Source: an uncultured Dehalococcoidia bacterium
Lineage (GTDB): Bacteria; Chloroflexota; Dehalococcoidia; Lucifugimonadales; UBA826
NCBI GenBank assembly: GCA_964602845.1
Contig: CAZRSW010000011.1
Location: 1-62,917 of the forward strand
Reading direction: 5' to 3'
DNA length: 62,917 nucleotides
Part shown: positions 29,967-47,052 of the stretch, in pieces
Numbering within the stretch: the stretch's first letter is position 1
How the letters are laid out: each line of letters begins with the position of its first letter
Position numbers and translations under genes: made by a program
Notes under the pieces: model-generated
Told to the model about the DNA's origin: nothing
Seen by the model: only the letters and a program-made list of their open reading frames with translations
Databases searched by the model: none

Positions 29967-31022
29967 TTATTGGTTCTCTCGATTAGCCCTCAAATAGTTG
30001 TCCATTTCACCAATATCCATCCAATACTCATGAATCGGAAAACCTACTACCCGATCACCCTCGATGATAAGGGCACTAATAAGGTCGGTCATATCGTAGT
30101 GTTTATCGTTAGGAATTTGATTAAGGGAAGTCCTACTAATAACATAGATGCCCGCATTCACAAAATGATGAAACGTCGGTTTTTCCTCAACAGATAAGAC
30201 TATTCCATTGTCCATGCGAACAACGCCAAACGGTACAGTATATTGGTGATCCTTAACTCCAACTGTCATTGATGCAACAGAATCCTTGTGAAATTCAACC
30301 ATAGATGCAAAATCGACGTCTGTCATGATATCCCCGTTAACCACTAGGAGATCTTTACTTGCTATATCTAACCAACTCAAAGCTCCCGCAGTACCCATCG
30401 GTTGATTTTCCTCTATATAGTTAATATCTACACCAATCGCAGAACCATCGCCAAAATATTCCTGGATAGATTCTCTTTTATAAAACGTGGTGATATGTAT
30501 CTTAGTGACACCATACTCCTTCAATCCTAATAAGATTCTTTCTAACAAGGGCTTGCTTCCTACCTCCAGCATCGGTTTAGGTTTGTTCTTGGTGAGGGGC
30601 ATCAGCCTTTTACCGAAACCACCAGCCATAATGACTGCCTCCAAATCATCGATTACATTCAAATCTATTTCTCGGTATGTCAGAACATTAACCACTCTAT
30701 CTTGATCATCCAAGAGTGGGATTTGTCTTATGCCCGCCTTCGCCATAATGTTCTTAAGTTGAACTCTGTCGGTCGACTCGTGGGCACTTACAGGATTCCG
30801 AACTCTATTAGCAGCTCTCCGATCTTTTATCACACTAACTGGCTCTGATATGTCGTGCCCATCCAGAATGGCTCTCCGTAAATCACCATCCGTGATCACA
30901 TCAAGCAATCTTCCTTCTTGATCAATAACAATTGCAGCCTTTATAGATTCTCTCTCTATGCAGGCCATAGCATCCTTAAACGATGCGGTAGGGGATATAA
31001 ATAATCTTGAACTATTTTTCAT
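29967..31022 (-). CDS. CBS-domain sugar-phosphate nucleotidyltransferase (PtmE-like, legionaminic acid clusters)
   Basis: N-terminal CBS pair (TDGDLRRAIL), then MAGGFGKRL.PLT..PKPML, GTAGAL, NGD, YWMDIG. Confidence 0.88.
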   Translation of the reverse strand: MKNSSRLFISPTASFKDAMACIERESIKAAIVIDQEGRLLDVITDGDLRRAILDGHDISEPVSVIKDRRAANRVRNPVSAHESTDRVQLKNIMAKAGIRQIPLLDDQDRVVNVLTYREIDLNVIDDLEAVIMAGGFGKRLMPLTKNKPKPMLEVGSKPLLERILLGLKEYGVTKIHITTFYKRESIQEYFGDGSAIGVDINYIEENQPMGTAGALSWLDIASKDLLVVNGDIMTDVDFASMVEFHKDSVASMTVGVKDHQYTVPFGVVRMDNGIVLSVEEKPTFHHFVNAGIYVISRTSLNQIPNDKHYDMTDLISALIIEGDRVVGFPIHEYWMDIGEMDNYLRANRENQ

Positions 31023-32514
31023 CGACCTGAAAATGATGAGGATAAAATTTACACAAAGCTTCTTTTGCTACCTGTGCCAGCCCTTCCTCATCCTCCGGGC
31101 TCAATTTCGGATATTCTATTCCCACCATTTCAAAAGAATTATCTATCTGTGCCTTGTTAAGACTTTTTCTCGATAAATCAAACGAAGAATCACCATCTTT
31201 AATCATAAGTAGATCATTCAATCCTTTAAGAGTAGAGGTGTAGTCAGAAGCAAACCGAACTGTTGGTAGCAAATTCACGAACTGATGACATCCAAATGAA
31301 AGAACCCGTCTGCTCATATTAATAGCCTCGATAGCAGCAGTTCCAGTTATTGTTGCCGTGACTTGTGATGCCATTATCCATTCCCACGGATGTACTTTGG
31401 GGTGCGCAAGGACAACATTCGGCATCCTCCTGAGGTGTTCATAAAGCCCCTTTGATCTTATTCCAAAACTAAAAGGTTGCTCTTTCACAACCAACAAAGT
31501 ATTAGCGGGTGAAGCTTTCGAGATCCAAGATATCATTTCCCAAGAATTATTAAATTCAGGGGATACTGAAAGCAATGCGACCTCTGGCTCTAAATGGAGA
31601 GGTATATATATCAATCTATACTCCTCTGAGATATCATCCGGCGTAACCCCATTCTTAACAAAGTATTTGTACATGGCCGGCCTCTTCAGAATTGGTTTAT
31701 ACCAACCTAAGTTAATCGCACCACGGCCTGGAGGACGTTTTCCAATACTGAGGCTTCTCCTATATAATCTTGACAGCCAGATTCTGACAAACCAGTACGT
31801 ACTTTTCCTCAACCTTCTGAGCACCGTCAACAGAGCGCCATTGTAAGAATAATCGACCTTCTGGTGTAGCATTTTTGAAACAGAGACTTGTTTGTAATCA
31901 GACTGAATTGATCCACTCAACAATTGAGGGTTTTTAACATGAGTTAAGACAGCTTTACTGAGACCAGGGTTATCTGTATAGCCATTCTCCGCCCACAAAT
32001 ATCTATCTCCAAATTTAGCATTCACAAGGCTTAAATCAAGTACATTATTGGACTTGGCTACAAGACTTAGCACCCGTTCTATATACATACCCACCACAAC
32101 GTCCGGTTTAATCTCTGCAAAAATCCTTTCGTACGTCTTAAACTGAGATAAAACGTTACGTAGTTTCTGAGAATGATTCCACCGCGCCCTTTTCAAATCA
32201 GGATGAAGATCAGCATTAAAAATATATCCCTTTCCTAATCCTCTCTCATGGGACATGATCAACGCGAAATTTTCCCCGTATTTCTTTTCTCTTTCAAGAC
32301 ATTCTTCCAGTAACAATTCATCCTTGATGTCATGAGTGTTATCTAAGGATGTATCGATGTTTGCAGAAAGATGAGGACTAATTTGTTGTATAAGGGATAC
32401 CAATGAGGGTCTTGTTACAAAAGTAACATTGTGGTCATTAGAGAGCAAACTGCCAAGTTGAATTAAGAAGGTGGCTTTTGCGGGTGTAACTTTAATAAGT
32501 ATATGTTTTTTCAT
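31012..32514 (-). CDS. Capsule_synth/KpsS-like GT-B protein (candidate CMP-ulosonate transferase)
   Basis: YIPLHLEPE...L.VKEQP...TITGTAAIEA pattern of the capsule-biosynthesis family. Confidence 0.65.
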   Translation of the reverse strand: MKKHILIKVTPAKATFLIQLGSLLSNDHNVTFVTRPSLVSLIQQISPHLSANIDTSLDNTHDIKDELLLEECLEREKKYGENFALIMSHERGLGKGYIFNADLHPDLKRARWNHSQKLRNVLSQFKTYERIFAEIKPDVVVGMYIERVLSLVAKSNNVLDLSLVNAKFGDRYLWAENGYTDNPGLSKAVLTHVKNPQLLSGSIQSDYKQVSVSKMLHQKVDYSYNGALLTVLRRLRKSTYWFVRIWLSRLYRRSLSIGKRPPGRGAINLGWYKPILKRPAMYKYFVKNGVTPDDISEEYRLIYIPLHLEPEVALLSVSPEFNNSWEMISWISKASPANTLLVVKEQPFSFGIRSKGLYEHLRRMPNVVLAHPKVHPWEWIMASQVTATITGTAAIEAINMSRRVLSFGCHQFVNLLPTVRFASDYTSTLKGLNDLLMIKDGDSSFDLSRKSLNKAQIDNSFEMVGIEYPKLSPEDEEGLAQVAKEALCKFYPHHFQVDEK

Positions 32515-32544: not shown

Positions 32545-33249
32545 CTAATTTCGGGAGGCTATAATGAATTTCCTATGTCCACCCTGACTACCAGTTTTCG
32601 ACTCCCATTGAGTAACAATACGTAATTCTTTGGATATAGACTCGGAAGCAGCCATCATTGCATCTTCAAAAGGATCATTGGTATCAGGAATATAGGAAGT
32701 AGATTCATAAAATAAATGACCCTTGGAACTCAGAAGACCCCTCACTTTCCTGAAGTATTCATTGCTAGAAACCCTCTCTTTGCCATCCTCAGTATAAAAT
32801 GAAGCCATACTAAGAATCAGGTCATATTTAATATCAGATACAAAGTCATCAAATGTAGAATTAAAAAAAACTGCTTCGTCTGTCAACCCCAAATGCTCAG
32901 CAGTCAACCGTCCTATCCTGTTTAAATAAGGATTCCATTCCACCCCATGAGCGAGCTCGCAACGAATGGCTAACTCCACGGTGAAAAACCCAAAGTTAGA
33001 CCCTATATCGAGAATTTTACTGTTTGCCTGACATAGTGAATCCAAACCATATTCCTCGATACGCTTCTCGACAGACCAACGCCGCCCAATATAATCAATA
33101 CGTTCATAGGTCTGATAAGGAGTATCGAAGTTGTATGAACCTTTGTTGTGGATAATTTCTTCTTCCAAAATAGCATCGATCCTATTTTTCAGATCATTCT
33201 TAGTAAATTCAATGGGATGCACTATTTTACTCCTTCGTTGTGAACGCAT
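32545..33249 (-). CDS. Class I SAM-dependent methyltransferase
   Basis: ILDIGSNFGFF motif I, GVE, YDLILS. Confidence 0.82.
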   Translation of the reverse strand: MRSQRRSKIVHPIEFTKNDLKNRIDAILEEEIIHNKGSYNFDTPYQTYERIDYIGRRWSVEKRIEEYGLDSLCQANSKILDIGSNFGFFTVELAIRCELAHGVEWNPYLNRIGRLTAEHLGLTDEAVFFNSTFDDFVSDIKYDLILSMASFYTEDGKERVSSNEYFRKVRGLLSSKGHLFYESTSYIPDTNDPFEDAMMAASESISKELRIVTQWESKTGSQGGHRKFIIASRN

Positions 33250-33431
33250 TGCCCGAACGGAATATCCTATCGGTTAAATCCTCATTCATACCTACAAGCA
33301 CATAGTAAAACTTATCAATTCGCTCAAATAACCAAGATCTTGTACTAAACTTATGCTAAGACCTGCGGACAATGTTTGTGATCGTAAAGTGCACAACAGT
33401 GGCAACGTTTTTGGTCGATATCCTATATATG

Positions 33432-34169
33432 CTAATGGGGGTCGTAAGACTTAGCAGACAATATGGCAATATGCTTTAATACGGGATGAATTATGTAGTA
33501 GGTCGTACCATTGCCTGGCTCTTGAGGTGTTTTCGACAGATTGCCTGTTCTTTCATAACTCGTCAGCATTTGGGAAGCAAGTTCTGCCCTGATGTACGGA
33601 TCAAAGAGCAGATCGATTTCCCTACGATCTCTCGGGGGATCAAATAATTTTTTCACAATTATTGGACCCGTATCAATCTTTCTATCTAAAACAAAACCTG
33701 TTACTCCACATACCCCATCATTCAACAACGAGTAATATAGAGTGGTACTTCCTCTATACTCTGGAAGTATTCCAGGATGAATGTGCAGAAACGTTTTGCC
33801 AAACCCAAGGATTCTCTTCCTGAGTATTGCCCCGCTTGGCCCGGAATATAATACTAAAGGCAAATCATTTTCCTGAACAGCTCTGCATACAATATCTGAG
33901 TTAGGGTCTAGTGAATCTAAGATTTTATAAGGGATAGAATAATCTTCTAGTAGATCTTTGACCGTGGCTTCCGTAGATAGACCCCTGTATAAATCAGGTA
34001 GTTTACCTTGCTCCGAAACGGCACGGTTTTCACTAGTTTTGACCCTACCGTCTTCCATATAAAAAACAAACGCCGGGAGCACCCCATTTCTTTTCATATT
34101 TTGAAGATAAAAGCTGGTCCTGATTGATGAGACCGCCAGCATACTTAAGTCAGCTATCGCATTATTCAA
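33432..34169 (-). CDS. Formyltransferase-fold protein (N-terminal domain only)
   Basis: LHIHPGILPEYRGS and IDTGPII; the canonical NxH is HxH here. Confidence 0.78.
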   Translation of the reverse strand: MNNAIADLSMLAVSSIRTSFYLQNMKRNGVLPAFVFYMEDGRVKTSENRAVSEQGKLPDLYRGLSTEATVKDLLEDYSIPYKILDSLDPNSDIVCRAVQENDLPLVLYSGPSGAILRKRILGFGKTFLHIHPGILPEYRGSTTLYYSLLNDGVCGVTGFVLDRKIDTGPIIVKKLFDPPRDRREIDLLFDPYIRAELASQMLTSYERTGNLSKTPQEPGNGTTYYIIHPVLKHIAILSAKSYDPH

Positions 34170-34178
34170 TTTGATGTG

Positions 34179-34913
34179 TCACAACTCAATTAAATGCTCT
34201 GCCAAAAGACTCTTAATACAAGCTACTTCGCCCTGAACCGAAAGGATCACGTAAATCATATCAGGTAAGGCTTCAATCATTTCATAATGTGAACATAGAA
34301 AGTCGTTCAACTTTAAAACAGTATTAAGTAATTTCAGATCATGAGTTTCATGGTATTTCGTCATAAGAGCTATAGAAAGTAGCGCATACGTCGCCATTGA
34401 AGCGGGTTCGTCCGACCCCGGTTTCATGCCTGAGGTATAAATAGAAAATAATTTCTTGTTGACCTCAAATCGTCTCAGGAAACCCATTATTTGTGCATTA
34501 TAATCTTGATTGGAAACCGCCTCTCCTTCAACAATAGTTTTCGTGGCCGCGAAAAGAACCGTCTCAGAATTGACTAAGGAAACTGCCTCCTTAAATTCAG
34601 ATCCAGAAACCGTGCAATCTTGTGTATATTCTTTATGTAAATAAGCAATCCTCTTCTTAACAGGAGAACTCAATAAATTATCGATCCTAGTTATCCAGTT
34701 AGGTATCTTATCAGCCTGACTAATTTCTTCCCCCGCCAGATATCTAGCTGACACTTCAATGAATTTATGCTCATATAACAAGCTGTGATGTTCTCTTGAA
34801 GCCACATATGAGTTTAGGAAATCGATGCCCTGGTAAGACGTGTACATATAGGCTTTAGAATCGGATACAATGCTTGGCCCAATATATTGATAGGCTGACC
34901 TCAATCGACTCAC
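34179..34913 (-). CDS. Hypothetical protein
   Basis: 244-aa ORF overlapping the kinase stop by 4 nt; helical C-terminus (RRFEVNKKL...LNTVLKLND); no family recognised. Confidence 0.6.
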   Translation of the reverse strand: MSRLRSAYQYIGPSIVSDSKAYMYTSYQGIDFLNSYVASREHHSLLYEHKFIEVSARYLAGEEISQADKIPNWITRIDNLLSSPVKKRIAYLHKEYTQDCTVSGSEFKEAVSLVNSETVLFAATKTIVEGEAVSNQDYNAQIMGFLRRFEVNKKLFSIYTSGMKPGSDEPASMATYALLSIALMTKYHETHDLKLLNTVLKLNDFLCSHYEMIEALPDMIYVILSVQGEVACIKSLLAEHLIEL

Positions 34914-35431
34914 GAGATAAACCCCAATCGATCAACTGCTTCAATTATCTTATTGGCTGGATCTTCATAAGATTCAAGGCAGACGTTATTATCAATAACT
35001 AGATGCGGATTAGAGGGAGGAGAAAATTCTAAGTCAACTCCCACCACGTCCTTAATATCACCTCGTAATGCTTTTTCATACAGCCCCTTTTTATCTCTCG
35101 TCTTCAACACCTCCATTGATACCGACAAAAATACTTCAAAATAGTTAGTTATATTTTGCCTATTCCAAATCCTTGATTCCTCGAATATGGATAGAATTGC
35201 ACAGACAACATCTATACCTTGAGAGTCCAGGAATTTACAGAACTTGGAGATCCTATCAGCATTCCTCCTACGATCTACTAAACTATGTCCAAGATCATTT
35301 CCCATGATCTGCCGTATTTCATCACCATCAATAAATACAACATTGGGCTTCCGAGTCTTAATTAATTTAAATACTTCTCTTCCAATGGAAGTCTTACCTG
35401 AACCTGATAGGCCCACTAGCCAGATGACCAT
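34910..35431 (-). CDS. Adenylyl-sulfate-kinase family protein; probable cytidine diphosphoramidate kinase (Cj1415-like)
   Basis: P-loop GLSGSGKT, DGDEIR, RDKKGLY, VVGVD..F..P; fourth gene of a Cj1418-1417-1416-1415-order cassette. Confidence 0.85.
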   Translation of the reverse strand: MVIWLVGLSGSGKTSIGREVFKLIKTRKPNVVFIDGDEIRQIMGNDLGHSLVDRRRNADRISKFCKFLDSQGIDVVCAILSIFEESRIWNRQNITNYFEVFLSVSMEVLKTRDKKGLYEKALRGDIKDVVGVDLEFSPPSNPHLVIDNNVCLESYEDPANKIIEAVDRLGFIS

Positions 35432-35447
35432 ATACTCCCCTTACACA

Positions 35448-36227
35448 TCACCTGTTGATCCTCAGGATTCCATCATTATTTTCAACTATTTCATTGGCGA
35501 TTTCATAATCCTTTATCGAATCCACTTCAACCCAGCCCCCACTCACCGGCACCTCCTTAACAGGATGCCCTAAAGTGATAAGACATTGGAGAACATCCGT
35601 CATATATAGATCATCAAATTTTTTTATAGTTGACGAATCACTAAAGAAGGGCTTCTCAAACATCGATTCCAAGCTATCCACAAGATACTTAACCCCGTTT
35701 GCTCTAAAAACAGTGAGGCCTATATATTGACCTTGGATTTCTTCGATATTTTGGGTTCTCTGTCCAATTTCAGTAATAAACCCATCCTTAGCAACTTTAA
35801 AGGATTCAGCATCATCTAACACATCTTCAAACCGCCTCTCCCAATAAGGCTTCCAATCCTTATCAACAATCACTCCTATCTCATCCCCCCCAGTGAGTAA
35901 ACTCTCTAAAACCTCAGGTTGATAGAGTATGTCTCCATATGAAACTATGAAACCTTCATCAAAATAATCCAATGCACACCACAGCGTAGCAACCATATTC
36001 GAGTGGAGATAATTTTCGTTGTCTATATACTGAAGTCCCGGCCTATTAATCTGATGCGACATATGGCCTCGGACGACAATAATTTCCTGTATACCCACAC
36101 TCCGTGCCACCTGTATCTGCCAATCTAAAATTGATCTTCCACTGACCGGTACCATTACCTTAGGCATACTATCCGTGAGCGGCGACAACCGAGACCCAGT
36201 ACCTGCGGCTAATATTATTAACTTCAC
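35448..36227 (-). CDS. LicC-like cytidylyltransferase; probable CTP:phosphoglutamine cytidylyltransferase (Cj1416-like)
   Basis: LAAGTGSRL.PLT..PK, NMVATL, SYGDI.Y, W..RF...L.DAESF, GQYIGL, YMTD.LQ, W.EVDS. Confidence 0.85.
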   Translation of the reverse strand: MKLIILAAGTGSRLSPLTDSMPKVMVPVSGRSILDWQIQVARSVGIQEIIVVRGHMSHQINRPGLQYIDNENYLHSNMVATLWCALDYFDEGFIVSYGDILYQPEVLESLLTGGDEIGVIVDKDWKPYWERRFEDVLDDAESFKVAKDGFITEIGQRTQNIEEIQGQYIGLTVFRANGVKYLVDSLESMFEKPFFSDSSTIKKFDDLYMTDVLQCLITLGHPVKEVPVSGGWVEVDSIKDYEIANEIVENNDGILRINR

Positions 36228-36236
36228 AATAGTAAT

Positions 36237-36923
36237 TTAAACAGCCGACAACCATCTTTTAATCAATAATTCATCGGTGGCAGTATCAAATCCAGCTCTT
36301 TCTGGATGCCATTGAACACCCAAGATGGGAAGATCAGGATGGAACAAACCCTCGACAATACCATCTTCAGTTACGGCAAAAGGCTCCAGTTCACTGGAAA
36401 CAGTGGAAATATGAACGGCATGATTGTGAAACGAATTAGTTAAAATACGCTTTCTGCCAAAGTAGTCTGAAAAATCTGGGTCAACGATGCTCAACTCATG
36501 ACTGTTTGCTACGTGCATGTCAGCGCCGCCACATAGATTTGTCGTGTCCCTAACGATGGTCCCCCCAAAAAAGACATTTATGATTTGCATTCCTCTACAA
36601 ACACCAAGCAGTGGTATCCTATCTTTTACAGCACGTTCGATGATCTGAAATTCGGTCTTATCGCGCAATTCACTAACATCTCCCTGATCCTGGAATTCGT
36701 CGGTTACCCCAACCGAACCTACGTTGTTGCCCCCCGTCAGCAAAAATGCGTCCACACCAACGTCATTGAAACCCAGGTTAACTCCAAATGGCGTATTAGG
36801 AATTAGAACAGGTGTCAACCCTAGTTTGCCCAAAAAATTCAACCAATCATGACTGATAGCGTCCCGCATTTCCTTGTGAGGGAAACTCTCGACCACTCTC
36901 ATTGAAACCCCCACAGTCAACAT
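36237..36923 (-). CDS. Class I glutamine-amidotransferase/peptidase C26; probable gamma-glutamyl-CDP-amidate hydrolase (Cj1417-like)
   Basis: E.RDAI..DW, LTGGN, R...E, GVCRGMQ (catalytic Cys), NSFH, QWHPER. Confidence 0.85.
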   Translation of the reverse strand: MLTVGVSMRVVESFPHKEMRDAISHDWLNFLGKLGLTPVLIPNTPFGVNLGFNDVGVDAFLLTGGNNVGSVGVTDEFQDQGDVSELRDKTEFQIIERAVKDRIPLLGVCRGMQIINVFFGGTIVRDTTNLCGGADMHVANSHELSIVDPDFSDYFGRKRILTNSFHNHAVHISTVSSELEPFAVTEDGIVEGLFHPDLPILGVQWHPERAGFDTATDELLIKRWLSAV

Positions 36924-39922
36924 CAGCTTATTACGTTAATCCGATGTCCCGCGCAATCAAGCTCTATAAGCCTACCCGTCCTAACCTGACTAGCTATGAT
37001 TTCGCCACAGCCTATCGCGGCAGGAATTCCCATTTCTGCCGAACGTATTGACATATGGGATGCTATCCCGCCATATTCCGTGATTAACCCAGAAATGCCC
37101 TTGCCAAAAATCCAATCATACCCAGGGTCTGCACCCTGAATGAATACTATGCGTCCCTCTACATTACGATTAGCCCCTTGATAAGTAACCTCCGAAACTT
37201 CTGAGACCACTCTTTTTTGTGTAATATAATTTGGGGTAGAAGGTACCAACTCAAATGAATAGACGTCATCCCGCGATCGTATAACAGGCGGCAGCTTTAA
37301 TGATTGGTGCACCTGATGTCTCTTTCGATTCAAAGTTGCTATCCTTTTCAACTCCGACCGACTTGTACTAGACGGGTTAACAGCAGATACATTCAATATC
37401 TGTTCCAACGGTATATAGGACATATCATCTCTAGAAAGGTCCAAAAGTTCTCCAAATTCCACTAACATAGTGAGTACAGCATTGATATTTTTTGTAAATT
37501 CAAATTTAAGTTTTTCTCGTGCAGGGATAGTCTTGGACACAAACAATATAAAATCATCAACATTAAACGAGAACCCTGATTCACTTATCAATGAAGCTAT
37601 TTGTCTTTCATATTTTCCAAGGAACGTTCGAAATTCGTGAGAGCTTTTTAGTGAATAATCACGACGATTCTCTTGTGACTGTGTAGAGATGTAAGTTGCT
37701 GCATCTTCCATATAATTCGAAGAGGTGATTTCATATGTACCTGGTCTTAGATGACCATATTTTTCTAGAAAATGCTCTTTTGAAATAACTTCATCATCAA
37801 CCTTTTGAAGATCTTCCCCAATACCACTCGCAACAGTAGGTAACATTGACATCATCAAGTCGTAATCATGGGGCTCAATAACATTGCGACTCTTCAGAGA
37901 ATCCAAAAACACAGAGGCGATAAATGAATATCTAGCCATTACGGCAAAAGGTACAGTGCCATATGTCATACAATCCCTGAGAAGAAAACGTACGGTGTGT
38001 GCAATTGAAGTGAACGAAGAAGAATTCACAGCAGTTAAAGCAGCCTGTCTTCTAGAATTCATCAATTCTATCTTTGCCCACTGATCTGTCATATTGCTAA
38101 GAGCGTCTGATACACACCTATCAGTATGACTGCGTAAACATCCTTGTAATCGCCCTACATCATCAAAATCAAATCCACCATCCATCAACCTTTTTCTTGT
38201 GTCATCAAAGTTGAAATCTGCGCAAGTTACTGCGATTTCAAATTCAACTTTATCTTGCAACTCTGGTTGTTTGAAAAGCTTATTCAAATAGTAATCTACA
38301 AGCCTTGTCCTCAAATTTTCTTCCACATCAGCTGGTATAAAAGAGTTAAAGCTAACCCTACAATCTATGTAGGTATGCCCTGCTAAGGAAACCAGTAATG
38401 GGAAAGGACTTACATCAGTATAACCACACAACACCCTCGCCTTCGACCATGACTCATCTGTTATCAGATATCTGTATATAGAAGCTGATAACGGACGGGG
38501 GCAAACTCCAATCATCTCTGCTGGATTCCAATCTGGCATATTTGCCAAAACGTTTCTCTTCCCAGGCAGAATAAAGTGAGATTTCAAAAAACCCCCGGCA
38601 TTCTCCCAAACTTGATCAAGTTCAGCATGGAAATCCTCATCAATTGACATTGGAGACCCACCCATAGAAGTCAATGGCCTAATCTGAAATATATAGAATT
38701 TGCCGGCACCGTCTATACTAAACTCGATATCTAGCGAATCGTGACCGGACAGATCTTCTATCTCCTTAATCGCCTCTATTAGTGCACAAATATTAGGGTC
38801 TGAAATTTTCCCATTACCACCAGGTTTGACCACTATTTGTGTCTTGAGATTACTCCCACTCCCTGAAGTAACTGTATCAGTGTACTTTGTTACATCATCG
38901 TAATTTACAATCCAATATGGTGACCCGGTTTCGGGATCTCTCGTGAGCACGACCCCACTTAAAGTAACATCCTCAATTTGTTGTTGGACAAAAACGGCAT
39001 CCTCTGAATTGAAAGGTCGATCTTTGCTAAAGCTCTGTATAACAGAATTAACAGCCCTATTAAGCGCTGAAGCGTTCGTCGATTCTACCCCCAACACACT
39101 CCTGAATTTACCGGCCATTGATTGATCCCAACGATCCTCACTGGTAGCGCTACTACGCACAACCAGTTTCCCAGTTCTGAATTTATCCGCCACATTTTGA
39201 GATATCCCTATCGGATCTCTCTGCCATTCCCCGACGGTAAAACCTATTTGCTCCAAGATACAGGACCTTTTTACAATAGGCCTGAGGCGTTCTAATGTCT
39301 CAGACTTTGTGCCAAAAACAAAATTTGACACCTCTCTATGATGAGTAATTCTCGCGCTATGATCACCGGCATCTACCTTTTTGTAGGGCATGTCAAGATT
39401 ACTCAATAATTCAAGTAGCGTTGAATTAGATTCCGACGGCGTACACTCTATTTGGCGACCCAGTAATTCAGCCGCTTTAGCAGAAAGTTTTACTATACCA
39501 GCCCATTCAGGTTCTTCGTGTTCCGTTTTGCCAACGTCTTTAGCAGAATTAATGCCAACAACTATGTCATCTACCTCATCAATTAACCTACTCATGAATT
39601 GCAATCTGACCAATATGTCAGACCTAATTATCAAACACGAGTCACTTAATTCTCTAGTAGCTATTTTGAGCGCACCAACATCATTAGATGAGAACCAGTC
39701 ACGGTTGAAATAAAATCTTAGCCCAGAATATTCGTTTACAACTTTCTCAATGTGGTATCCGCCTATGAAAATCACGTCGGTTATGCCTACTCTGTTTAGC
39801 ATCGATATGGTCCAATCAAGTACCGTCTTTCCTTGTCCATCATGTAGTAATGCAATAGGATAACTCTTACTGCTATCCAATCTCTGAATCCCTCTGTCAG
39901 ACCCCAAAATTATTGCTTTCAT
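36923..39922 (-). CDS. PEP-utilising/PPDK-type kinase; probable L-glutamine kinase (Cj1418-like) with an extra N-terminal nucleotidyltransferase-like domain
   Basis: TKSETL, VRSSA..ED...SMAG.F.S, DIEF, Q.RP, MPDWNPAEMIG, DKVEFEI, YGHLRPGTYEI, ADPGYDWIF, GG.ASHM.IR.AE (phospho-His domain). Confidence 0.9.
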   Translation of the reverse strand: MKAIILGSDRGIQRLDSSKSYPIALLHDGQGKTVLDWTISMLNRVGITDVIFIGGYHIEKVVNEYSGLRFYFNRDWFSSNDVGALKIATRELSDSCLIIRSDILVRLQFMSRLIDEVDDIVVGINSAKDVGKTEHEEPEWAGIVKLSAKAAELLGRQIECTPSESNSTLLELLSNLDMPYKKVDAGDHSARITHHREVSNFVFGTKSETLERLRPIVKRSCILEQIGFTVGEWQRDPIGISQNVADKFRTGKLVVRSSATSEDRWDQSMAGKFRSVLGVESTNASALNRAVNSVIQSFSKDRPFNSEDAVFVQQQIEDVTLSGVVLTRDPETGSPYWIVNYDDVTKYTDTVTSGSGSNLKTQIVVKPGGNGKISDPNICALIEAIKEIEDLSGHDSLDIEFSIDGAGKFYIFQIRPLTSMGGSPMSIDEDFHAELDQVWENAGGFLKSHFILPGKRNVLANMPDWNPAEMIGVCPRPLSASIYRYLITDESWSKARVLCGYTDVSPFPLLVSLAGHTYIDCRVSFNSFIPADVEENLRTRLVDYYLNKLFKQPELQDKVEFEIAVTCADFNFDDTRKRLMDGGFDFDDVGRLQGCLRSHTDRCVSDALSNMTDQWAKIELMNSRRQAALTAVNSSSFTSIAHTVRFLLRDCMTYGTVPFAVMARYSFIASVFLDSLKSRNVIEPHDYDLMMSMLPTVASGIGEDLQKVDDEVISKEHFLEKYGHLRPGTYEITSSNYMEDAATYISTQSQENRRDYSLKSSHEFRTFLGKYERQIASLISESGFSFNVDDFILFVSKTIPAREKLKFEFTKNINAVLTMLVEFGELLDLSRDDMSYIPLEQILNVSAVNPSSTSRSELKRIATLNRKRHQVHQSLKLPPVIRSRDDVYSFELVPSTPNYITQKRVVSEVSEVTYQGANRNVEGRIVFIQGADPGYDWIFGKGISGLITEYGGIASHMSIRSAEMGIPAAIGCGEIIASQVRTGRLIELDCAGHRINVIS

Positions 39923-40021
39923 AACCTTAATGTTTAGTAAAGATTTGATAAAACCCTAAGTGGACCAAAATCCTCAATTTATGAGCCATATTAAAGCAAA
40001 AACATGTCCAACATAAATTAC

Positions 40022-40846
40022 TCATACCGATTTTTCTTCAGGTGCCCTGACAGTATTTGCATGTCGGCTAGTCCTATGAACGCTCAATAGCCTGTTAGCC
40101 AACTCAAACTGACTGATAATTTTCAGAATTCCATCTACCACCATGATCAATACTACTACTCCGAAAACGTATTCCCTCAGACCATCTATCGTCGCTAGTA
40201 TCAAAGCAATCAAAATGGAGTCGAAAAGAACATCACTAGGTAGCTGCGGAATAATCGCTTTGGAATCAAGATCTTTTATCTGGGCTAACCATTCAACACT
40301 CTTAAGAGTATCCGCCCTGTACCACTCTCTATGAAAACTGAACCTAGCTCGGATATATTCAGCAAACAACCAGAAAAATCCTGTCGATAGACCTCCACAC
40401 AACAGAAATATCTTATCGGTACTCAAATATAGGGACATACCATAGAAAATCGGCATTATAGATATGACCAAAGCATCAACCGCCCCATCAAGAAATTTGC
40501 CAAAATAAGTGGCCTTGTCATTCGCCCTGGCAATATTGCCGTCGACAGCATCAAGGACAACAGCAAACTGGTATATGAGACTTCCAACGAGCCACCATAT
40601 CCACGTACCAGGTAGCAACAATAACAAACCCAGCAGGGAAAATATCAAGCCAAGCACTGTTACCAAATTCGGTGTCAGGCCAAGCATTAGAAAAAATGGT
40701 GTAATAAGAAATGACACCGGCCTTATCCAGTATCGCCATAAAAACCCTGTTTGACTGGTATGATCAAAATTGTCTTTAGCTCTGTTGTAAGTACGCGAAT
40801 AATTTACGTAAAATAGCCTAAACATTTCAATCAACTCATCACACAA
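40022..40846 (-). CDS. CDP-alcohol phosphotransferase family membrane protein
   Basis: TPNLVT and the complete signature D-AV-DG-NI-AR-x8-G-KFL-D-GAV-D; several TM segments. Probable start at MFRLF. Confidence 0.9.
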   Translation of the reverse strand: MCDELIEMFRLFYVNYSRTYNRAKDNFDHTSQTGFLWRYWIRPVSFLITPFFLMLGLTPNLVTVLGLIFSLLGLLLLLPGTWIWWLVGSLIYQFAVVLDAVDGNIARANDKATYFGKFLDGAVDALVISIMPIFYGMSLYLSTDKIFLLCGGLSTGFFWLFAEYIRARFSFHREWYRADTLKSVEWLAQIKDLDSKAIIPQLPSDVLFDSILIALILATIDGLREYVFGVVVLIMVVDGILKIISQFELANRLLSVHRTSRHANTVRAPEEKSV

Positions 40847-40966
40847 TCAATAGCTATCTTTGTCATAGATAACAACCACCTATAAGGGTACAACGAGGTC
40901 AATAGAAATTAACTGTAAGCCTAGGGAACAGGCAACTTCCAAAACCCCAATAAATTGACATTGCAG

Positions 40967-42118
40967 TTAGGTTCCAGATCCTGCAAAATAACTCTCCAGA
41001 ACGCTTTCCCTCACCGTATCCAAAGTACAACAATGTATACCACCACTTATCAAATACGAATGTCGGAACTTTGTCGGTACGACCGTAAAACCATACTGTT
41101 CCAAAGTCTTGATAAGGTTGATTTGACGATCGTCTACTATCACTGTATTGGGATCAAGAGACAAGAAATTCATGCCAATCCATTTGGACGATATTGATCC
41201 AAGATTACTCTCAATGCCCATACTTAGGAGCTCATTATAGATTGGCAATCTCACCTTATGGTGGAACTCTTGAGTAGCCTCTGGAATAGGTTCAATATCA
41301 TGAAAATATATCTTTTCCCATTCATCAAAAATAGCCGGGCAGTTGCTAGTATCTACCCGATCTCCGTTCAACAAAACTAATCCTGGCCGAAGACATAAGA
41401 CTGTAGAATCAATATGGCTCGACTTGTAAATCTTATCGGTGGTATGGACTTTATATTCTTCCCCTAAAATATGCTGCAGCCATCTTGCTCCTAGATAATT
41501 GCCAGATCGAGACACAAGATAAAGTAGGTCAGTACCCATACGAACAGTATTAGCAGCCTCAAATAAGATTTCATCTTCCATAAGCTTCACATATTTTTGG
41601 CCATCGTCATATTGATCTCGACCATCCTCCATATATGAGGTCATGTGTTCAGAACTAAATCGTGGTTTAGGACTCGATACCCAACGAAATCCATTTTCTT
41701 TCATATATTCATAAAATATGTCATACAATCCGATAGGTTCAAAGAAACGGTGTTGCTCCTGCGATGGTGATTCTATGACCATGTCACCAACAACCAAATG
41801 TAAATCCCTCATGTTATATATATGCTCCGCTGCTCCAGCTATAAATGGAGTCTGGAATTCGACCCCCACAGAGTCTAAATTAGGGCGGTGCACCTTCACA
41901 TTGAAATCCTCGAATATCTTGTTCAAACCTTCAAGATCTTCAGACACCTCATCGGATAACCATTTCGGGTAGGCCTGAGCGCTAAGATCTTTGGCCTTAT
42001 TCAATACATTTTCAGTCGGGATTTTATTGGACAAAAACCTAAGCGACGCTGGCCCCTCGGCTCTTCCAAGTATCACCTCCTTCAAAGTATCCCATTCATT
42101 ATGACTATTTATTTTCAT
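40967..42118 (-). CDS. L-arginine amidinotransferase (glycine/inosamine-phosphate amidinotransferase family)
   Basis: NSHNEWD.LKEVI.G, RD, FEAAN, HIDST, GMN.LS, GGIHCCTLD..R (catalytic Cys/His). Confidence 0.88.
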   Translation of the reverse strand: MKINSHNEWDTLKEVILGRAEGPASLRFLSNKIPTENVLNKAKDLSAQAYPKWLSDEVSEDLEGLNKIFEDFNVKVHRPNLDSVGVEFQTPFIAGAAEHIYNMRDLHLVVGDMVIESPSQEQHRFFEPIGLYDIFYEYMKENGFRWVSSPKPRFSSEHMTSYMEDGRDQYDDGQKYVKLMEDEILFEAANTVRMGTDLLYLVSRSGNYLGARWLQHILGEEYKVHTTDKIYKSSHIDSTVLCLRPGLVLLNGDRVDTSNCPAIFDEWEKIYFHDIEPIPEATQEFHHKVRLPIYNELLSMGIESNLGSISSKWIGMNFLSLDPNTVIVDDRQINLIKTLEQYGFTVVPTKFRHSYLISGGIHCCTLDTVRESVLESYFAGSGT

Positions 42119-42125
42119 TATCGCT

Positions 42126-43073
42126 CTACATTCCTCCTTTTTGGGATCCAGACGTTATCATCTGCAAAATGTTTGCATGATCCTCTCTATTAAGTTCCAA
42201 ATTATTGGACTCGTAATCTGAGGACTGCGGTGTAAAACAATTATTGGCGCGAAACCCACAAATGATCCCCAATTTCCGTAGTATCTCAAGAGTCTCATGA
42301 TTGTAAGAATCCGCCGGATGTGCCATGGCTAACACTTCAGACTCACATACTTTTTGGATGTGGTGAAGATTTCTACGATATTCATTCCATTGATCTTGGT
42401 AGGGCAGTGTAGCGATCACCATAGGATGGGAGTAGGAATGCAGTCCAATGACATGTCCGAGATGACGTAGTTCCAACAGATTCTCATTGGTCATCCACAT
42501 ATGCCGACCTAAATCTTCTTCTTCGATCCCATAATCCTGAATGATTTGATCCATGAAGCCCTCAAAGGACTTCGGCGTTAAAACCTGATCTCTAATTATT
42601 CGGAATTTTGCGTCTTCAGTGGAGTAAAACGGTGCTGCTGAAATTACTTTGTTCAAACTCCGCTCATTGATCAATGTCAAAGCTTTATTTGAAAAAGGCG
42701 ATTTATCCACTTTTTCGAAAAACAATTCATAAAATTCGTTTATCTCATCGAAATAGGAACACCGGAAACGCCGATACATCTCGAATTTTGATCGAAAACC
42801 CTCAAACACACTGGAATAAATGAACCAGAATGCTTGGATCCCATACTCCTCCATAACTGGTAGAGCAACTTCAAACTGGCACAATAAAGAGTCATCGAAC
42901 GTGAGGCATATATCCTCATTTTTCAGCTGATGTGAACTTAATCGACCCAACCATTCATAAGGCGTTATAATTCTTTCCGGGCCAATATATTCAATGATCT
43001 GCCTAAACTCCGCCGCCGAAATAGATCCTTGACCACGCAAATGGCGTCCACCATCATGAAGATGGTGAAACAT
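42126..43073 (-). CDS. Polysaccharide deacetylase (NodB/CE4 family)
   Basis: MFHH, CLTFDD, IGLHSYSHP, MAHP. The true start may be the upstream in-frame CTG at 43106. Confidence 0.85.
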   Translation of the reverse strand: MFHHLHDGGRHLRGQGSISAAEFRQIIEYIGPERIITPYEWLGRLSSHQLKNEDICLTFDDSLLCQFEVALPVMEEYGIQAFWFIYSSVFEGFRSKFEMYRRFRCSYFDEINEFYELFFEKVDKSPFSNKALTLINERSLNKVISAAPFYSTEDAKFRIIRDQVLTPKSFEGFMDQIIQDYGIEEEDLGRHMWMTNENLLELRHLGHVIGLHSYSHPMVIATLPYQDQWNEYRRNLHHIQKVCESEVLAMAHPADSYNHETLEILRKLGIICGFRANNCFTPQSSDYESNNLELNREDHANILQMITSGSQKGGM

Positions 43074-43167
43074 TACCCCATGGGGACCGGATACCTGATA
43101 TTTCAGAACGTTGTGATCTCCCTCATAGCTAGATACCTATCACGCAGCAATGTCGTGTTGTTATGGC

Positions 43168-44154
43168 TCAAACTATGTATCCCTGTGTGCTGTAATGATG
43201 TAGATTTGACTTCATCCAAGATATCGTTTTAGAAACACCATTTTCAATGGACACTTTGGGTAGCCATGCTAGTAACTTGCCAGCTTCCTCAGAATTCGAT
43301 ATCAACCTATCTACTTCGCTGCTATTTGGCCTTATACGTTGGTTATCCCGTTTCACTGTGGAGTCAGAATTCGTCAACTTTATACAAATATTCACTAACT
43401 CTTCCACGGAATAATCCATCCCTGTGCCAAGTTGAATGGTCTTACCTTCCACTCCATTGGCATTAAATGCCTTAACGAACCCATCTACGGTATCAGACAC
43501 ATATGTCATATCGCGGCGAGGCCACAAAGATCCCAATTTTATCTCTTTTTGATTGTTTAAAATCTGGGTTAAGACTGTAGGCAATATAGCCTTGTTAGAT
43601 TGTCTGGGTCCATATGTGTTGAAGGGTCTCAATATCACAGCCGGCAATTCATAACTGTAAAAAAAACTCTCTGCCAACTTGTCAGCCGCTATCTTAGATG
43701 CCGCGTATGGCGATTGAGCCTTAAGAGGATGGTTAGAAAATATTGGGACAGATTTCGGTGATCCATACACCTCACTACTGGACGTTTGTATAAATCTTTG
43801 GCAGCCGTACCTTACAGCAGCTTCCAGCATATTTAAAGTGCCGAAAACGTTAGTGTCTATAAAGGAACGCGGCGATTGAAACGAATACGGAACAGAAATC
43901 AAGGCAGCGAGATGTGCTATGTAATCACATCCTTTAACAAAAGCTTCCGCCGATCTGGCATCCCTTATATCACCGGTGACTATCTCAACAGCTTCTGCGG
44001 TTCTTGGTTCCATGTCCTTTAACCAGCCTATGGAATCTGAGGAATTATACAACGCTGTCGCCCTCACTTCCCAACCATCTTTAACCAACCGTTCTACGAG
44101 ATGGCTACCTATAAATCCATCAGCTCCTGTCACCAGGACTTTCTTATTATTCAC
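43168..44154 (-). CDS. legB: NAD-dependent 4,6-dehydratase, LegB-like
   Basis: TGADGFIGSHL.E.L, YNS...GWL, HLAALI..PYS, QSPYAASK, RPFNTYGPRQS. Confidence 0.78.
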   Translation of the reverse strand: MNNKKVLVTGADGFIGSHLVERLVKDGWEVRATALYNSSDSIGWLKDMEPRTAEAVEIVTGDIRDARSAEAFVKGCDYIAHLAALISVPYSFQSPRSFIDTNVFGTLNMLEAAVRYGCQRFIQTSSSEVYGSPKSVPIFSNHPLKAQSPYAASKIAADKLAESFFYSYELPAVILRPFNTYGPRQSNKAILPTVLTQILNNQKEIKLGSLWPRRDMTYVSDTVDGFVKAFNANGVEGKTIQLGTGMDYSVEELVNICIKLTNSDSTVKRDNQRIRPNSSEVDRLISNSEEAGKLLAWLPKVSIENGVSKTISWMKSNLHHYSTQGYIV

Positions 44155-44912
44155 TCGTTGTCACTAAGATGTTCACTGTAAACAGAGTTAATTTTTCCCT
44201 GTAGCATTAGTTCTATTATTTCCATGTTGAATAAATCATCAGCTTCAATAGCTCGTTGCCTTGGAACAATGTACCCCCCCCACTTACCTGTATGCAGATG
44301 CGACACCTTATCCATACTTGACCTACGATATGCAAATACCGAACCACTAACTCCGTAGGACTTAGGTGCATCCTGGCGTCTGATTACACCATGTGCAGTT
44401 TCCTTGCTTAAACTGATCTGTTCTTTCTTTTCAGGATCGTTATCAATAAACTCCACCATGGTGTAATAGGGATTCAACTCCGGAATATACACCGTCACCG
44501 CAGCGTCGAATTCTCGATTTCCGTGCAACAGTTTTATAACCCCGCCGATATCTTCTGGCTGACGTTGGGGGACCGTCACATCCAAATCTACTACGACATC
44601 GGGAAAGAACCCATCATTATTTTCTACATACCGAGTGGCATGGAGTATGGCATCTATCTTAGGAGACACATCCGTGCTATATTCTGCTGGTCTATTAAAC
44701 GGCACATCTACCCCCAAACCTCTCACCAAATCTGCAATCTCTTTGCTATCAGTCGTCACAATGAATTGATCTATCGAACTGCAACGAATGGCACAATCAA
44801 TCGTATACTCAATTAGTGGACGACCGTTGATACGGTAAACATTCTTACCCTTAATCCCCTTAGATCCTCCTCTTGCGCAAATTGTCGCCAGAACTTTAGG
44901 ATCTTTATACAT
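44151..44912 (-). CDS. neuA: Acylneuraminate cytidylyltransferase (NeuA/LegF/PtmB family)
   Basis: TICARGGSKGIKGKN, RP...S.D..PK, LD.T.P.R, RRQDAP. Confidence 0.85.
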   Translation of the reverse strand: MYKDPKVLATICARGGSKGIKGKNVYRINGRPLIEYTIDCAIRCSSIDQFIVTTDSKEIADLVRGLGVDVPFNRPAEYSTDVSPKIDAILHATRYVENNDGFFPDVVVDLDVTVPQRQPEDIGGVIKLLHGNREFDAAVTVYIPELNPYYTMVEFIDNDPEKKEQISLSKETAHGVIRRQDAPKSYGVSGSVFAYRRSSMDKVSHLHTGKWGGYIVPRQRAIEADDLFNMEIIELMLQGKINSVYSEHLSDNE

Positions 44913-44916
44913 CTTT

Positions 44917-46101: not shown

Positions 46102-47032
46102 AATATTGCTCTCGGATTAACTCGTTTAAGCCAAGTTCAAGGTCCACTAAAGGGTCCCAATCTATAGCGTCTCGAAGTTTGTTGTTGTTCAAAACCAGCT
46201 TTGATTTACTGTCACGTTTTTCTCTCGGCACCTCACCATTAAGACCCATCTTGACACTATGTCGATTGCCACTAAGTTTGACCACCAAATCTGCTACGTC
46301 ACCAACGGAATACCCGATGTTAGTAGAAATATTGAACTCATTCCAGTAACCCAAGTTTTTGCTCTTCAACAAGCCGATAATCGCACTGGACACATCATTG
46401 ACGTGAATGAAGTCCCTAACTGGACCAGGGTCCTTTATAAAAATATCCTGACCTCTCGCTACCTGTTGGATTAAACCGCCGATTAAGGTAAATGCCTTGC
46501 TATTTGGCCCATATACATTCGCCAACCTGATCACCAACACCTCACAGCTCAATCCTTGAGTGACAACTCGAGCTGACAATTCACCTGCCAACTTACTAAA
46601 AGCATAATCTGACTCCGGTCTCAGCTCCGCAGATTCTGTCAAAGGTTCCTCTGAATTGTTACCATAGACATAAGCCGTAGAAGCAATGATCAATCTTCTG
46701 ATCCCCGCTTCAACGCAAGCTCTAGCTATATTAGTTGTACCAAAAACATTAGTAGATAAATATTGGGACGATCGATTATCAGCGTTGTCGTTTCGGGTTT
46801 CCGCGGCCAAATGAACTACGCTACTACATCCGTCGAAGACTCTTCGCAACGCTGCAAGATCTCTAATATCAGCTGAGTCAGTCTCAACCAGACCAGATGC
46901 CAACCTACAATCCTGATGAGAATTCGGTCGGCGAACCGCCCTAACCTTTAGAGACCCATCTAACACGATGTCTTCTATAAGCCTAGACCCTATTTGCCCA
47001 AAGGCCCCTGTGACACATATTGTTTCAGTCAA
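46088..47032 (-). CDS. NAD-dependent epimerase/dehydratase (extended SDR)
   Basis: VTGAFGQIG, HLAA, ST..VYG, YAFSK, R.ANVYGP, RDFIHV.D. Confidence 0.88.
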   Translation of the reverse strand: MTETICVTGAFGQIGSRLIEDIVLDGSLKVRAVRRPNSHQDCRLASGLVETDSADIRDLAALRRVFDGCSSVVHLAAETRNDNADNRSSQYLSTNVFGTTNIARACVEAGIRRLIIASTAYVYGNNSEEPLTESAELRPESDYAFSKLAGELSARVVTQGLSCEVLVIRLANVYGPNSKAFTLIGGLIQQVARGQDIFIKDPGPVRDFIHVNDVSSAIIGLLKSKNLGYWNEFNISTNIGYSVGDVADLVVKLSGNRHSVKMGLNGEVPREKRDSKSKLVLNNNKLRDAIDWDPLVDLELGLNELIREQYYERS

Positions 47033-47052
47033 GACAGTACTGGATGGTGCTT

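Follow-up and report, generated by a model that had tools for sequence, protein, structure and literature searches.

Described systems and the locus in question

One review reports phosphoramidate sugars only from Campylobacter (PMC6429109), and two other papers give the functions of Cj1415-Cj1418 in the donor pathway of its O-methyl phosphoramidate (MeOPN) modification (PMC11800397, PMC3907429). Here we describe ten contiguous genes from an uncultured Dehalococcoidia bacterium (GenBank assembly GCA_964602845.1; 1.88 Mb, 96.7% complete) that hold homologues of these four donor enzymes together with a deacetylase, an amidinotransferase, a cytidine diphosphate (CDP)-alcohol phosphotransferase, a small helical protein, a formyltransferase-fold protein and a putative methyltransferase. 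The genes lie on contig CAZRSW010000011.1 (C11), all 62,917 bases of which we analysed and call the window. Their open reading frames (ORFs) run head to tail on the minus strand from 32545 to 43073, inside a cluster for nonulosonic acids (NulOs), and all of the catalytic motifs that we searched for in them are present. Our best reading is that they comprise two recurrent NulO-associated tailoring cassettes, both undescribed, plus one orphan phosphotransferase. We give a probability of roughly 60% to the region being a mosaic of three separately inherited units within the legionaminic-type NulO cluster of a long polysaccharide locus, with the chemistry as proposed below. The first unit is the deacetylase with the amidinotransferase, the second is a seven-gene phosphoramidate cassette that runs from the glutamine kinase to the putative methyltransferase, and the third is the CDP-alcohol phosphotransferase.

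The initial annotation of this DNA had placed ten co-oriented genes at 32545-43106 within NulO genes and had read them as a single system that adds both phosphoramidate and guanidino groups. The contiguity, the orientation, the flanks and the start all hold, and the end at 43106 takes in 33 untranslated bases beyond 43073. Searches of Pfam, NCBIfam and PDB upheld the family assignments; the gene listed as unknown turned out to belong to a conserved family and is not an orphan. A role in tailoring a NulO or a NulO-bearing glycan fits as well, since both sub-modules recur beside nonulosonate genes elsewhere.

The likeness to the C. jejuni MeOPN system (Cj1415-Cj1422), also claimed in the initial annotation, is that homologues of all four donor enzymes are in the window, have intact motifs and group with the ORFs that hold the corresponding positions in eight Campylobacteria loci. 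There are several differences. The window's L-glutamine kinase (GlnK) has an extra N-terminal nucleotidyltransferase-like domain, the window adds a pair made of a formyltransferase-like (FT-like) protein and the small protein unk_244, the methyltransferase MT_234 and the CDP-alcohol phosphotransferase (CDPOH), and the setting is a NulO cluster, whereas in Campylobacter it is a heptose/GalfNAc capsule. For comparison there are the eight loci from Campylobacteria, a class in which the GlnK family is found in 32 of 151 genomes, including a Helicobacteraceae-titled one. In these loci an APS-kinase family gene (APSK), a cytidylyltransferase (CT), a C26-type hydrolase (C26) and GlnK (about 775 aa) are accompanied by two methyltransferases and a DUF2972 protein of about 600 aa. 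We take this arrangement to be the published Cj1415-Cj1422 order, and the DUF2972 protein to be Cj1421/22, from its position, its size and the published gene order.

When 16 Cj1419/20-type methyltransferase ORFs were compared by blastp with the window ORFs, there was one chance-level match (E 0.009), and against the genome they gave one weak match on another contig. For the eight Campylobacteria ORFs of the DUF2972 (PF11186) transferase type, there was no match at E 0.01 among the window ORFs, at E 0.001 by tblastn in the genome or at E 1e-6 in the 160 loci surveyed below. The cassette in the window is not canonical MeOPN, and the methyl phosphoramidate of the initial annotation is, in the Campylobacter sense, unproven with neither of these enzyme types found.

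The amidinotransferase (AMT) is most like StrB1 (1bwd), AGAT and SxtG. The likeness runs over the full length, and the catalytic Cys, the catalytic His and both guanidinium-binding Asp positions align. It differs from StrB1 in that an invariant Glu replaces the Asp of the triad, and it lies among NulO genes with a CE4 deacetylase and not in a cluster for aminocyclitol antibiotics. According to the SugarBase preprint, Ca. Kuenenia stuttgartiensis has NulOs linked to cytidine monophosphate (CMP) that carry a free amine, its legionaminic acid (Leg) cluster holds a deacetylase and a formyltransferase, the deacetylase lies between Leg genes as in our window, and PtmG and PtmH are mentioned (10.64898/2026.04.20.719630). 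The partner of the deacetylase in the window is instead an amidinotransferase, so a guanidino group would be expected in place of a free or formylated amine. In the acetamidino (Am) forms of Leg and of pseudaminic acid (Pse), PseA/PtmG-type amidotransferases replace the N-acyl group with a cationic amidine-type group that cancels the charge of the carboxylate. The outcome that we propose is comparable in that a cationic group offsets the NulO carboxylate. However, the family and the chemistry are different: the acetyl group is amidated there, and for AMT we propose the transfer of arginine's amidino group to a free amine.

CDPOH has the full DxxDGxxARx8GxxxDxxxD signature of AF2299, PIPS and DIPPS. 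It would share with these enzymes and with TagF-type CDP-glycerol transferases the logic CDP-X + acceptor-OH -> X-P-O-acceptor + CMP, although it is at most 39% identical to any relative. We know of no CDP-alcohol phosphotransferase shown to use CDP-amidate.

Co-occurrence of the genes elsewhere

We assembled two sets of loci. A scan of one genome per species yielded at least 586 stretches that encode a GlnK relative, from which the best 80 loci were taken with 10-kb flanks. A scan of metagenome contigs confirmed 409 stretches with an AMT relative, and the best 80 loci were again taken. Both sets are the top tblastn matches and not random samples, and related loci such as L023 and L026 do not count as separate cases.

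Searched by tblastn with the window proteins, the 80 GlnK loci contained CT in 77, C26 in 71, APSK in 46, the FT-like gene in 22, NeuB in 10, unk_244 in 5 (8 by clustering), MT_234 in 4 and the deacetylase (DAC) in 1. CDPOH matched in 2, both times partially, and reached at least 50% coverage in none; AMT was found in none of the 80. The picture for the 80 AMT loci is DAC in 61, NeuA in 30, and NeuB and NeuC in 27 each, with GlnK, C26, APSK and CDPOH each in none. From the lack of any co-occurrence of AMT and GlnK in these 160 loci, we conclude that the ten genes are not one recurring system. The single combined system of the initial annotation fails on this check, and CDPOH is a singleton among all 160 loci.

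Other genomes give a similar result. Among the five genomes that carry the closest cassette, four have no AMT match, and the fifth has a copy of only 34% identity, with an internal stop, on another contig. Among 40 relatives there was no GlnK match longer than about 140 residues, and one of 250 other genomes of the class (G369) had a GlnK match, with no more of the cassette than GlnK-C26-CT (31-39% identity). A search for AMT in 400 further phylum members gave nothing at E 1e-60. Vertical inheritance was rejected on these grounds, the sampled relatives having yielded no AMT and, of the GlnK cassette, no more than the GlnK-C26-CT of G369.

Several studies of marine plankton and seawater have metagenome runs with DNA nearly identical to this stretch, and among the data sets listed for it there was no RNA run. 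We compared contigs from seawater metagenomes of three studies, other than the one from which the genome may come, with the window. The junction between CDPOH and AMT is bridged by two contigs (40540-41352 and 40577-40979) and the one between GlnK and CDPOH by one (39750-40073), all at least 99% alike. Because these contigs come from other studies, the juxtaposition of the genes is not an assembly artefact of the genome bin. Other seawater contigs, with matches of at least 99%, diverge into unlike sequence at 40958, 42119, 36257, 34203 and 32506. These breakpoints are at or near gene and module borders and suggest strain-level mosaicism. One contig with AMT and DAC was deeper in coverage than the others. 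A contig joint that omits 37765-38235 was disregarded, because its shorter side is only 20 letters, and places where a single run had no contig over the stretch were given no weight.

The GC content of the module genes is 38.5-44.7%, against 43.9% for the genome, and we found no clear foreign signal in their composition. A scan of 31000-44500 for promoters and terminators was uninformative (37 promoter-like sites with 38.4 expected, and 11 terminator-like sites with 9.0 expected).

The deacetylase and amidinotransferase pair

DAC_315 (42126..43073, minus strand) is a CE4 (NodB-type) deacetylase (PF01522, E 2.9e-15). It has TFDD at residue 58 and HSYSH at 212, in agreement with TFDD and H(S/T)xxH, the metal- and base-binding motifs of CE4/NodB enzymes. 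Seven bases separate it from AMT_383 (40967..42118, minus strand), a StrB1-like arginine-type amidinotransferase. Pfam gives AMT only a weak ADI match, and the initial call of an amidinotransferase was borne out by PDB searches, where AMT matches StrB1 (1bwd) with E 4.8e-64 over residues 3-274 and 310-377, SxtG with 1e-46 and AGAT with 4e-41. Across 18 homologues, neither Cys363 (in GGIHC) nor His235 (in SSHIDS) varies. The Cys, His and Glu of AMT were placed by the numbering of the StrB1 catalytic triad. The AMT family is 51-66% identical across the 80 metagenome loci, and its named members are from candidate-phyla bacteria, Rokubacteria and Binatia, none with a function assigned in the sources.

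In ORF maps, DAC sits right beside AMT in 59 of the 80 loci. A methyltransferase of about 400 aa adjoins AMT in 23, and a second methyltransferase type does so in 6. The typical order is DAC-AMT-methyltransferase, amid NeuA, NeuB, NeuC, LegB-like, PtmE-like and aminotransferase genes. There are four loci (L111, L114, L138 and L142) in which PtmE-like and LegB-like genes are found together downstream of AMT; no gene separates the pair from AMT in L114, one methyltransferase gene does so in L111 and L138, and in L142 there are several genes in between. The arrangement in these four loci suggests that the stretch between AMT and the PtmE-type gene in the window is an insertion.

We predict that the product of this pair is a guanidino-NulO, by analogy with the deacetylase-containing Leg cluster and the free-amine CMP-NulOs of Kuenenia. 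DAC would strip the N-acetyl group from the NulO or from its nucleotide-linked form, and AMT would then transfer the amidino group of arginine to the freed amine. A guanidino-NulO made in this way would remain zwitterionic at any physiological pH. In the literature that we searched, there was no report linking amidinotransferases or guanidino groups to natural NulOs, the co-mentions of guanidino and nonulosonic acid being unrelated, and no description of the DAC-AMT gene pair.

The probable phosphoramidate donor genes and their companions

GlnK_999 (36923..39922, minus strand) is an L-glutamine kinase of the Cj1418 type, with a match to NF004508 (E 9.8e-252, 837 bits, cut-off 501) that spans residues 197-998. 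The additional nucleotidyltransferase-like domain takes up residues 1-190, and residues 1-111 resemble LicC (1jyk, E 2.9e-5). Forms of about 1000 aa are common across many phyla, and His956 (in GGIASH) is invariant in 14 sequences. One Helicobacteraceae-titled genome (G654, the genome of L031) has two Gln-kinase genes, a Campylobacter-type one of 775 aa and one of 1015 aa with the N-terminal domain.

C26_228 (36237..36923, minus strand) is a C26/GATase hydrolase, putatively a gamma-glutamyl hydrolase like Cj1417 (PF07722, E 9.3e-35), has the motifs GVCRGMQ and HPE, and clusters with the ORFs in the Cj1417 position of the Campylobacteria loci. CT_259 (35448..36227, minus strand) is a nucleotidyltransferase (PF12804, E 2e-15; PF00483, E 2e-11) that resembles Cj1416, the CTP:phosphoglutamine cytidylyltransferase. 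It has the motif GTGSR, and the model library is without a dedicated profile for the Cj1416 enzyme; CT_259 clusters with the ORFs in the Cj1416 position in seven of the eight Campylobacteria loci, and in the remaining one its cluster mate is an ORF close by. APSK_173 (34910..35431, minus strand) belongs to the APS-kinase family (PF01583, E 2.4e-36; NF004041, 185.6 bits, cut-off 127), like Cj1415, the cytidine diphosphoramidate 3'-kinase. Its P-loop is GLSGSGKT, and it clusters with the ORFs in the Cj1415 position. Judged by these homologies, the four enzymes would make cytidine diphosphoramidate and its 3'-phosphate as Cj1418-Cj1415 do, and we infer that donor synthesis is their role.

The order GlnK-C26-CT-APSK-unk_244-FT recurs across other phyla. 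It is the same in loci from Anaerolineales (L015), Nomurabacteria (L017) and Kangiellaceae (L021), and, with a methyltransferase in addition, in the near-duplicate Chloroflexota loci L023 and L026 and in Planctomycetota (L041). The cassette is rotated in Cohnella (L055), and in Magnetovibrio (L066) APSK and CT are swapped and MT_234 is also present. NeuB lies within 10 kb in 5 of the 8 loci with unk_244, compared with 5 of the 72 without it.

The small helical protein unk_244 (34179..34913, minus strand) has no Pfam or NCBIfam match, and the start of its gene overlaps the kinase gene by 4 bases. A small ORF always precedes the FT-like gene, usually with a 4-base overlap, and homologues of unk_244 are found in 12 other loci. 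These small ORFs align as one family in which N197 is invariant. The AlphaFold 2 (AF2) model is helical, with a pLDDT of 72, and a fold search of PDB gave nothing at E <=0.001 (best E 0.075, TM-score at most 0.37). Leads to alpha/alpha-toroid proteins from the ESM Atlas (score 0.89, recognition 1924) were below threshold and were not used.

FT_245 (33432..34169, minus strand) matches PF00551 (Formyl_trans_N) with 29.9 bits (cut-off 26.1), and its AF2 model (pLDDT 89.6) has the GART-type formyltransferase fold. Foldseek finds Met-tRNA formyltransferase (4iqf, E 1.8e-13), the N-terminal domain of ArnA and sugar N-formyltransferases, with E from 1.8e-13 to 1e-9 and TM-scores of about 0.6. Compared with the window's true formyltransferase by hhalign, it gives a probability of 94%, and the catalytic His and Asp of that enzyme have His131 and Asp166 as their counterparts in FT_245. 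By clustering, the FT-like family is in 21 of the 80 GlnK loci and in none of the 80 AMT loci, from which it appears that the FT-like gene belongs to the phosphorus-nitrogen (P-N) genes and not to NulO genes generally.

Complex prediction gave FT_245 with unk_244 a score of 0.88, compared with 0.00 for the best control. Scores this high were obtained for 58 of 80 solved complexes and for 2 of 110 mismatched pairs, counts that are a rough guide here because our own alignments were used. At least 88% of the contacts agree between runs, the pLDDT of the partner is at least 81, and the predicted interface lies on invariant residues of both families. We predict on the basis of these models that unk_244 is the partner subunit of FT_245. 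The heterodimer may modify the donor or the acceptor, and our best guess for its activity is N-formylation of the nucleotide-linked P-NH2.

MT_234 (32545..33249, minus strand) is a putative S-adenosylmethionine (SAM) methyltransferase with weak Pfam matches (E 0.006, below cut-off), the SAM motif ILDIGSNFG and a 182-base gap upstream. Its homologues lie beside GlnK in 4 of the 80 loci (L014, L020, L036 and L066), and it would add a methyl group.

The CDP-alcohol phosphotransferase

CDPOH_274 (40022..40846, minus strand) is a divergent integral-membrane CDP-alcohol phosphotransferase (PF01066, 53 bits, cut-off 22) with hydrophobic stretches along the protein. Its signature, DAVDGNIARANDKATYFGKFLDGAVD, is an exact match to that of the family and starts at residue 99. 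The best PDB matches are AF2299 and PIPS (E 1.6e-8). Among 1.84 billion representatives, no more than 9 reach E 1e-30, and about 8 of these are full-length relatives, at 31-39% identity. Gaps of 120 and 99 bases flank the gene.

The PIPS-like gene of the genome is a different one from CDPOH: it is the other PF01066 gene, on contig C10, beside inositol-3-phosphate synthase. The cluster there (L184, C10:33000-45000) consists of the inositol-3-phosphate synthase (TIGR03450, E 3e-165), a GT4 glycosyltransferase and the PIPS-like CDP-alcohol phosphotransferase. These two are the only PF01066 genes found genome-wide, and neither is like a typical PgsA.

The other GlnK loci show which transferases usually accompany the donor genes. 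TagF-like genes (PF04464) are in 11 loci, none of them with APSK, and sulfotransferase-like genes are in 13 loci, all 13 with APSK; CysQ-like phosphatases are in 6, again all with APSK. This suggests two donor logics, one that uses CDP-amidate directly and one that uses its 3'-phosphate in the style of PAPS (3'-phosphoadenosine 5'-phosphosulfate). As the type of transferase sorts with APSK, a dedicated transferase matched to the form of the donor is usual. In the window's 54 ORFs and in the six-frame ORFs of the genome, hidden Markov models find no sulfotransferase-like or TagF-like transferase. The place immediately upstream of GlnK, where the window has CDPOH, is taken by a sulfotransferase-like gene in L015 and L023.

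We propose CDPOH as a candidate phosphoramidate transferase because the other transferase types are missing, its position is equivalent to that of the sulfotransferase-like gene and its signature is intact. In this role it would take phosphoramidate from the CDP-linked donor, place it on an acceptor bound to the membrane and release CMP or its 3'-phosphate. One archaeal locus (L042) has a co-oriented PF01066 gene two genes upstream of GlnK, and two others (L039 and L085) have weak matches.

Four GlnK loci (L019, L030, L039 and L071) have a large membrane protein of the sulfatase/LtaS/EptA type (PF00884, E 4.5e-14) near the GlnK genes. It shares the locus with a TagF-like gene in three of the four and adjoins that gene only in L039. 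The presence of this protein hints at a relay of the group outside the cell.

Weighing the readings

Several points weigh against the mosaic reading and the chemistry that goes with it, and some of them concern the samples. Many of the AMT loci are shorter than 5 kb, where the absence of a gene is weak evidence, and ORF calling and single-linkage clustering are crude ways to compare loci. In AMT, the invariant Glu187 (FEAAN) is at the position of the StrB1 Asp (FDAAN). The top NCBIfam match of C26_228 is the gamma-glutamyl-CDP-amidate hydrolase NF045546, with 98.9 bits, below the cut-off of 250. The catalytic Asn-His-Asp of FT_245 is incomplete, with an invariant His129 at the position of the Asn (HIHPG, compared with NLHPS in the window's true formyltransferase); because of this substitution, FT_245 may not use formyl-tetrahydrofolate. 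The nearest named relatives of CDPOH are inositol-phosphate enzymes, a PF01066-like gene is near GlnK in just 1-3 of the 80 loci, and the 3'-kinase is kept in the window though a transferase acting directly on the CDP form would not need one. The link from CDPOH to phosphoramidate is one of position and family chemistry, and the products of all ten genes are ones that we infer. We hold it as possible, and somewhat doubtful, that this marine bacterium's locus encodes two undescribed surface-sugar chemistries, a guanidino-NulO made by deacetylase and amidinotransferase and a non-Campylobacter phosphoramidate whose donor is edited by a two-subunit formyltransferase-fold enzyme, with a CDP-alcohol phosphotransferase for its delivery.

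One integrated pathway would have the ten enzymes work on one intermediate and make an N-rich group, for example a NulO with guanidino and (methyl)phosphoramidate groups or an N-phosphoguanidine. The genes are indeed contiguous and co-oriented, with terminator-like sites no commoner than chance, both sub-modules are linked to NulOs elsewhere, and independent metagenome contigs bridge the junctions. We nevertheless consider it unlikely, given that the 160 loci show no co-occurrence, that the genomes with the closest cassette lack AMT in four cases and have the diverged copy with a stop in the fifth, that AMT was not found in the 400 phylum genomes at the threshold above, that either sub-module occurs widely and in full where the other is missing, and that contigs of other seawater strains have loose ends at the module borders. 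A narrower proposal is that the FT-like/unk_244 pair merely N-formylates the NulO amine freed by the deacetylase. The formyltransferase fold with its catalytic His and Asp would suit such a reaction, as would NeuB in 5 of 8 unk_244 loci, and the preprint on the Kuenenia Leg cluster describes and proposes a deacetylase and formyltransferase pair of this kind (10.64898/2026.04.20.719630). However, the FT-like gene is in 21 of the 80 GlnK loci and in none of the 80 AMT loci, at least 25 of which have NulO genes. It always follows APSK and unk_244 or lies beside a TagF-like gene, it is present in GlnK loci (L021, L025 and L055) where no NulO or deacetylase homologue was found within 10 kb, and the window has a separate true formyltransferase and PIG-L deacetylase at 216-2179. 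We judge simple NulO formylation to be improbable.

The rival that we take most seriously is that CDPOH has nothing to do with phosphoramidate and adds inositol-phosphate, glycerol-phosphate or another alcohol-phosphate, or makes a special lipid anchor, with P-N transfer left to an unrecognised enzyme, perhaps the FT-like/unk_244 pair or unk_500, a Capsule_synth-like protein encoded just downstream. Its best named relatives are phosphatidylinositol-phosphate (PIP) and archaetidylinositol-phosphate synthases, DIPPS and AF2299, the genome makes inositol-3-phosphate, and the locus has a Capsule_synth-like gene, which points to a polymer with a lipid anchor. The gaps of 99 and 120 bases separate the gene from both neighbours, and the 3'-kinase that is kept is accompanied by PAPS-type transferases in 13 of 13 other cases. 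On the other side, no cytidylyltransferase for such an alcohol is evident except the N-terminal domain of GlnK, which is common in loci that have no CDPOH, and the genome has no sulfotransferase-like, TagF-like or DUF2972 transferase, so that the cassette would be without a recognisable transferase. An unrelated role for CDPOH is possible, to about the degree that the two new chemistries together are. A further variant joins AMT and CDPOH on an aminocyclitol, an inosamine phosphate as for StrB1, to give a guanidino-cyclitol phosphate decoration. The best solved relative of AMT uses inosamine phosphate, CDPOH resembles inositol-phosphate transferases, and the genome has inositol-3-phosphate synthase. 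We give this variant very little weight, as AMT homologues pair with a deacetylase and NulO genes, a PF01066-like gene is in none of the 80 AMT loci, and the dehydrogenase and aminotransferase pair that forms inosamine was not seen beside AMT and CDPOH in the window. The mosaic of three units is the reading that we retain.

Implications

Despite the Campylobacter-only reports, at least 586 species-level genomes encode a relative of the Gln kinase. The window's locus, with the sorting of transferase types in the GlnK loci, gives concrete candidate enzymes for P-N delivery to glycans outside Campylobacter, and the DAC-AMT pair points to a class of cationic NulOs in environmental bacteria. Three things would be new: a guanidino-NulO, a two-subunit formyltransferase-fold enzyme in a P-N pathway and a P-N transferase of the CDP-alcohol phosphotransferase type.

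If the first is true, the DAC-AMT pair, often with a methyltransferase and widespread in uncultured bacteria, makes a natural guanidino-NulO. This sugar would be nearly isobaric with the N-acetyl form (0.011 Da apart), and mass surveys could easily miss it. If the last is true, CDPOH adds a fourth type of P-N transferase, unrelated to the DUF2972, sulfotransferase-like and TagF-like ones. Charge-neutralised NulOs would alter the charge of the cell surface. MeOPN is reportedly a phage receptor in Campylobacter, and we speculate that such groups could shape the recognition of plankton by phages and grazers.

The surrounding polysaccharide locus

The ten genes are part of a single long polysaccharide locus in which genes lie on the minus strand throughout 216-53376, after a NusG-like gene and an HTH gene. 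It contains many GT4 glycosyltransferases, an ABC exporter and sugar-nucleotide enzymes. Upstream of the ten genes is the legionaminic/neuraminic-type core (43168..48084, minus strand), made up of a NeuB-type synthase, an SDR, NeuC, a cytidylyltransferase and a LegB-like dehydratase (an SDR as well), with 405 bits for LegB (TIGR04180), 381 bits for NeuC (TIGR03568, cut-off 236) and 357 bits for NeuB (TIGR03569).

Downstream come unk_500, the PtmE-type gene and then homologues of PseB, PseC and PseG. The 500-aa unk_500 (31012..32514, minus strand) has no Pfam match and is Capsule_synth-like from PF05159 clusters in the ESM Atlas (score 0.98). Its homologues are in 5 of the 80 AMT loci and none of the 80 GlnK loci, and it is probably a ulosonic-acid transferase. 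A paralogue of this protein is on contig C14. The PtmE-type CBS-nucleotidyltransferase (29967..31022, minus strand) has CBS and NTP_transferase domains.

There are three further NeuB-like synthase genes in the genome, with 31-33% identity; C14 carries two of them and C24 the third. For a genome of 1.88 Mb, the investment in nonulosonates is unusually heavy.

At the low end of the window, a PIG-L-family deacetylase (216-1118, minus strand) is followed by a formyltransferase (1115-2179) that is complete, having both its N- and its C-terminal domain, which makes 216-2179 a second deacetylate-then-acylate pair within the polysaccharide locus. At 20948-24228 (minus strand), a weakly AsnB-like protein of 562 aa adjoins a protein of 531 aa that has no family. 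A full asparagine-synthase-type amidotransferase lies at 8003-9904 (minus strand), and relatives of it are present in 8 of the 80 GlnK loci.

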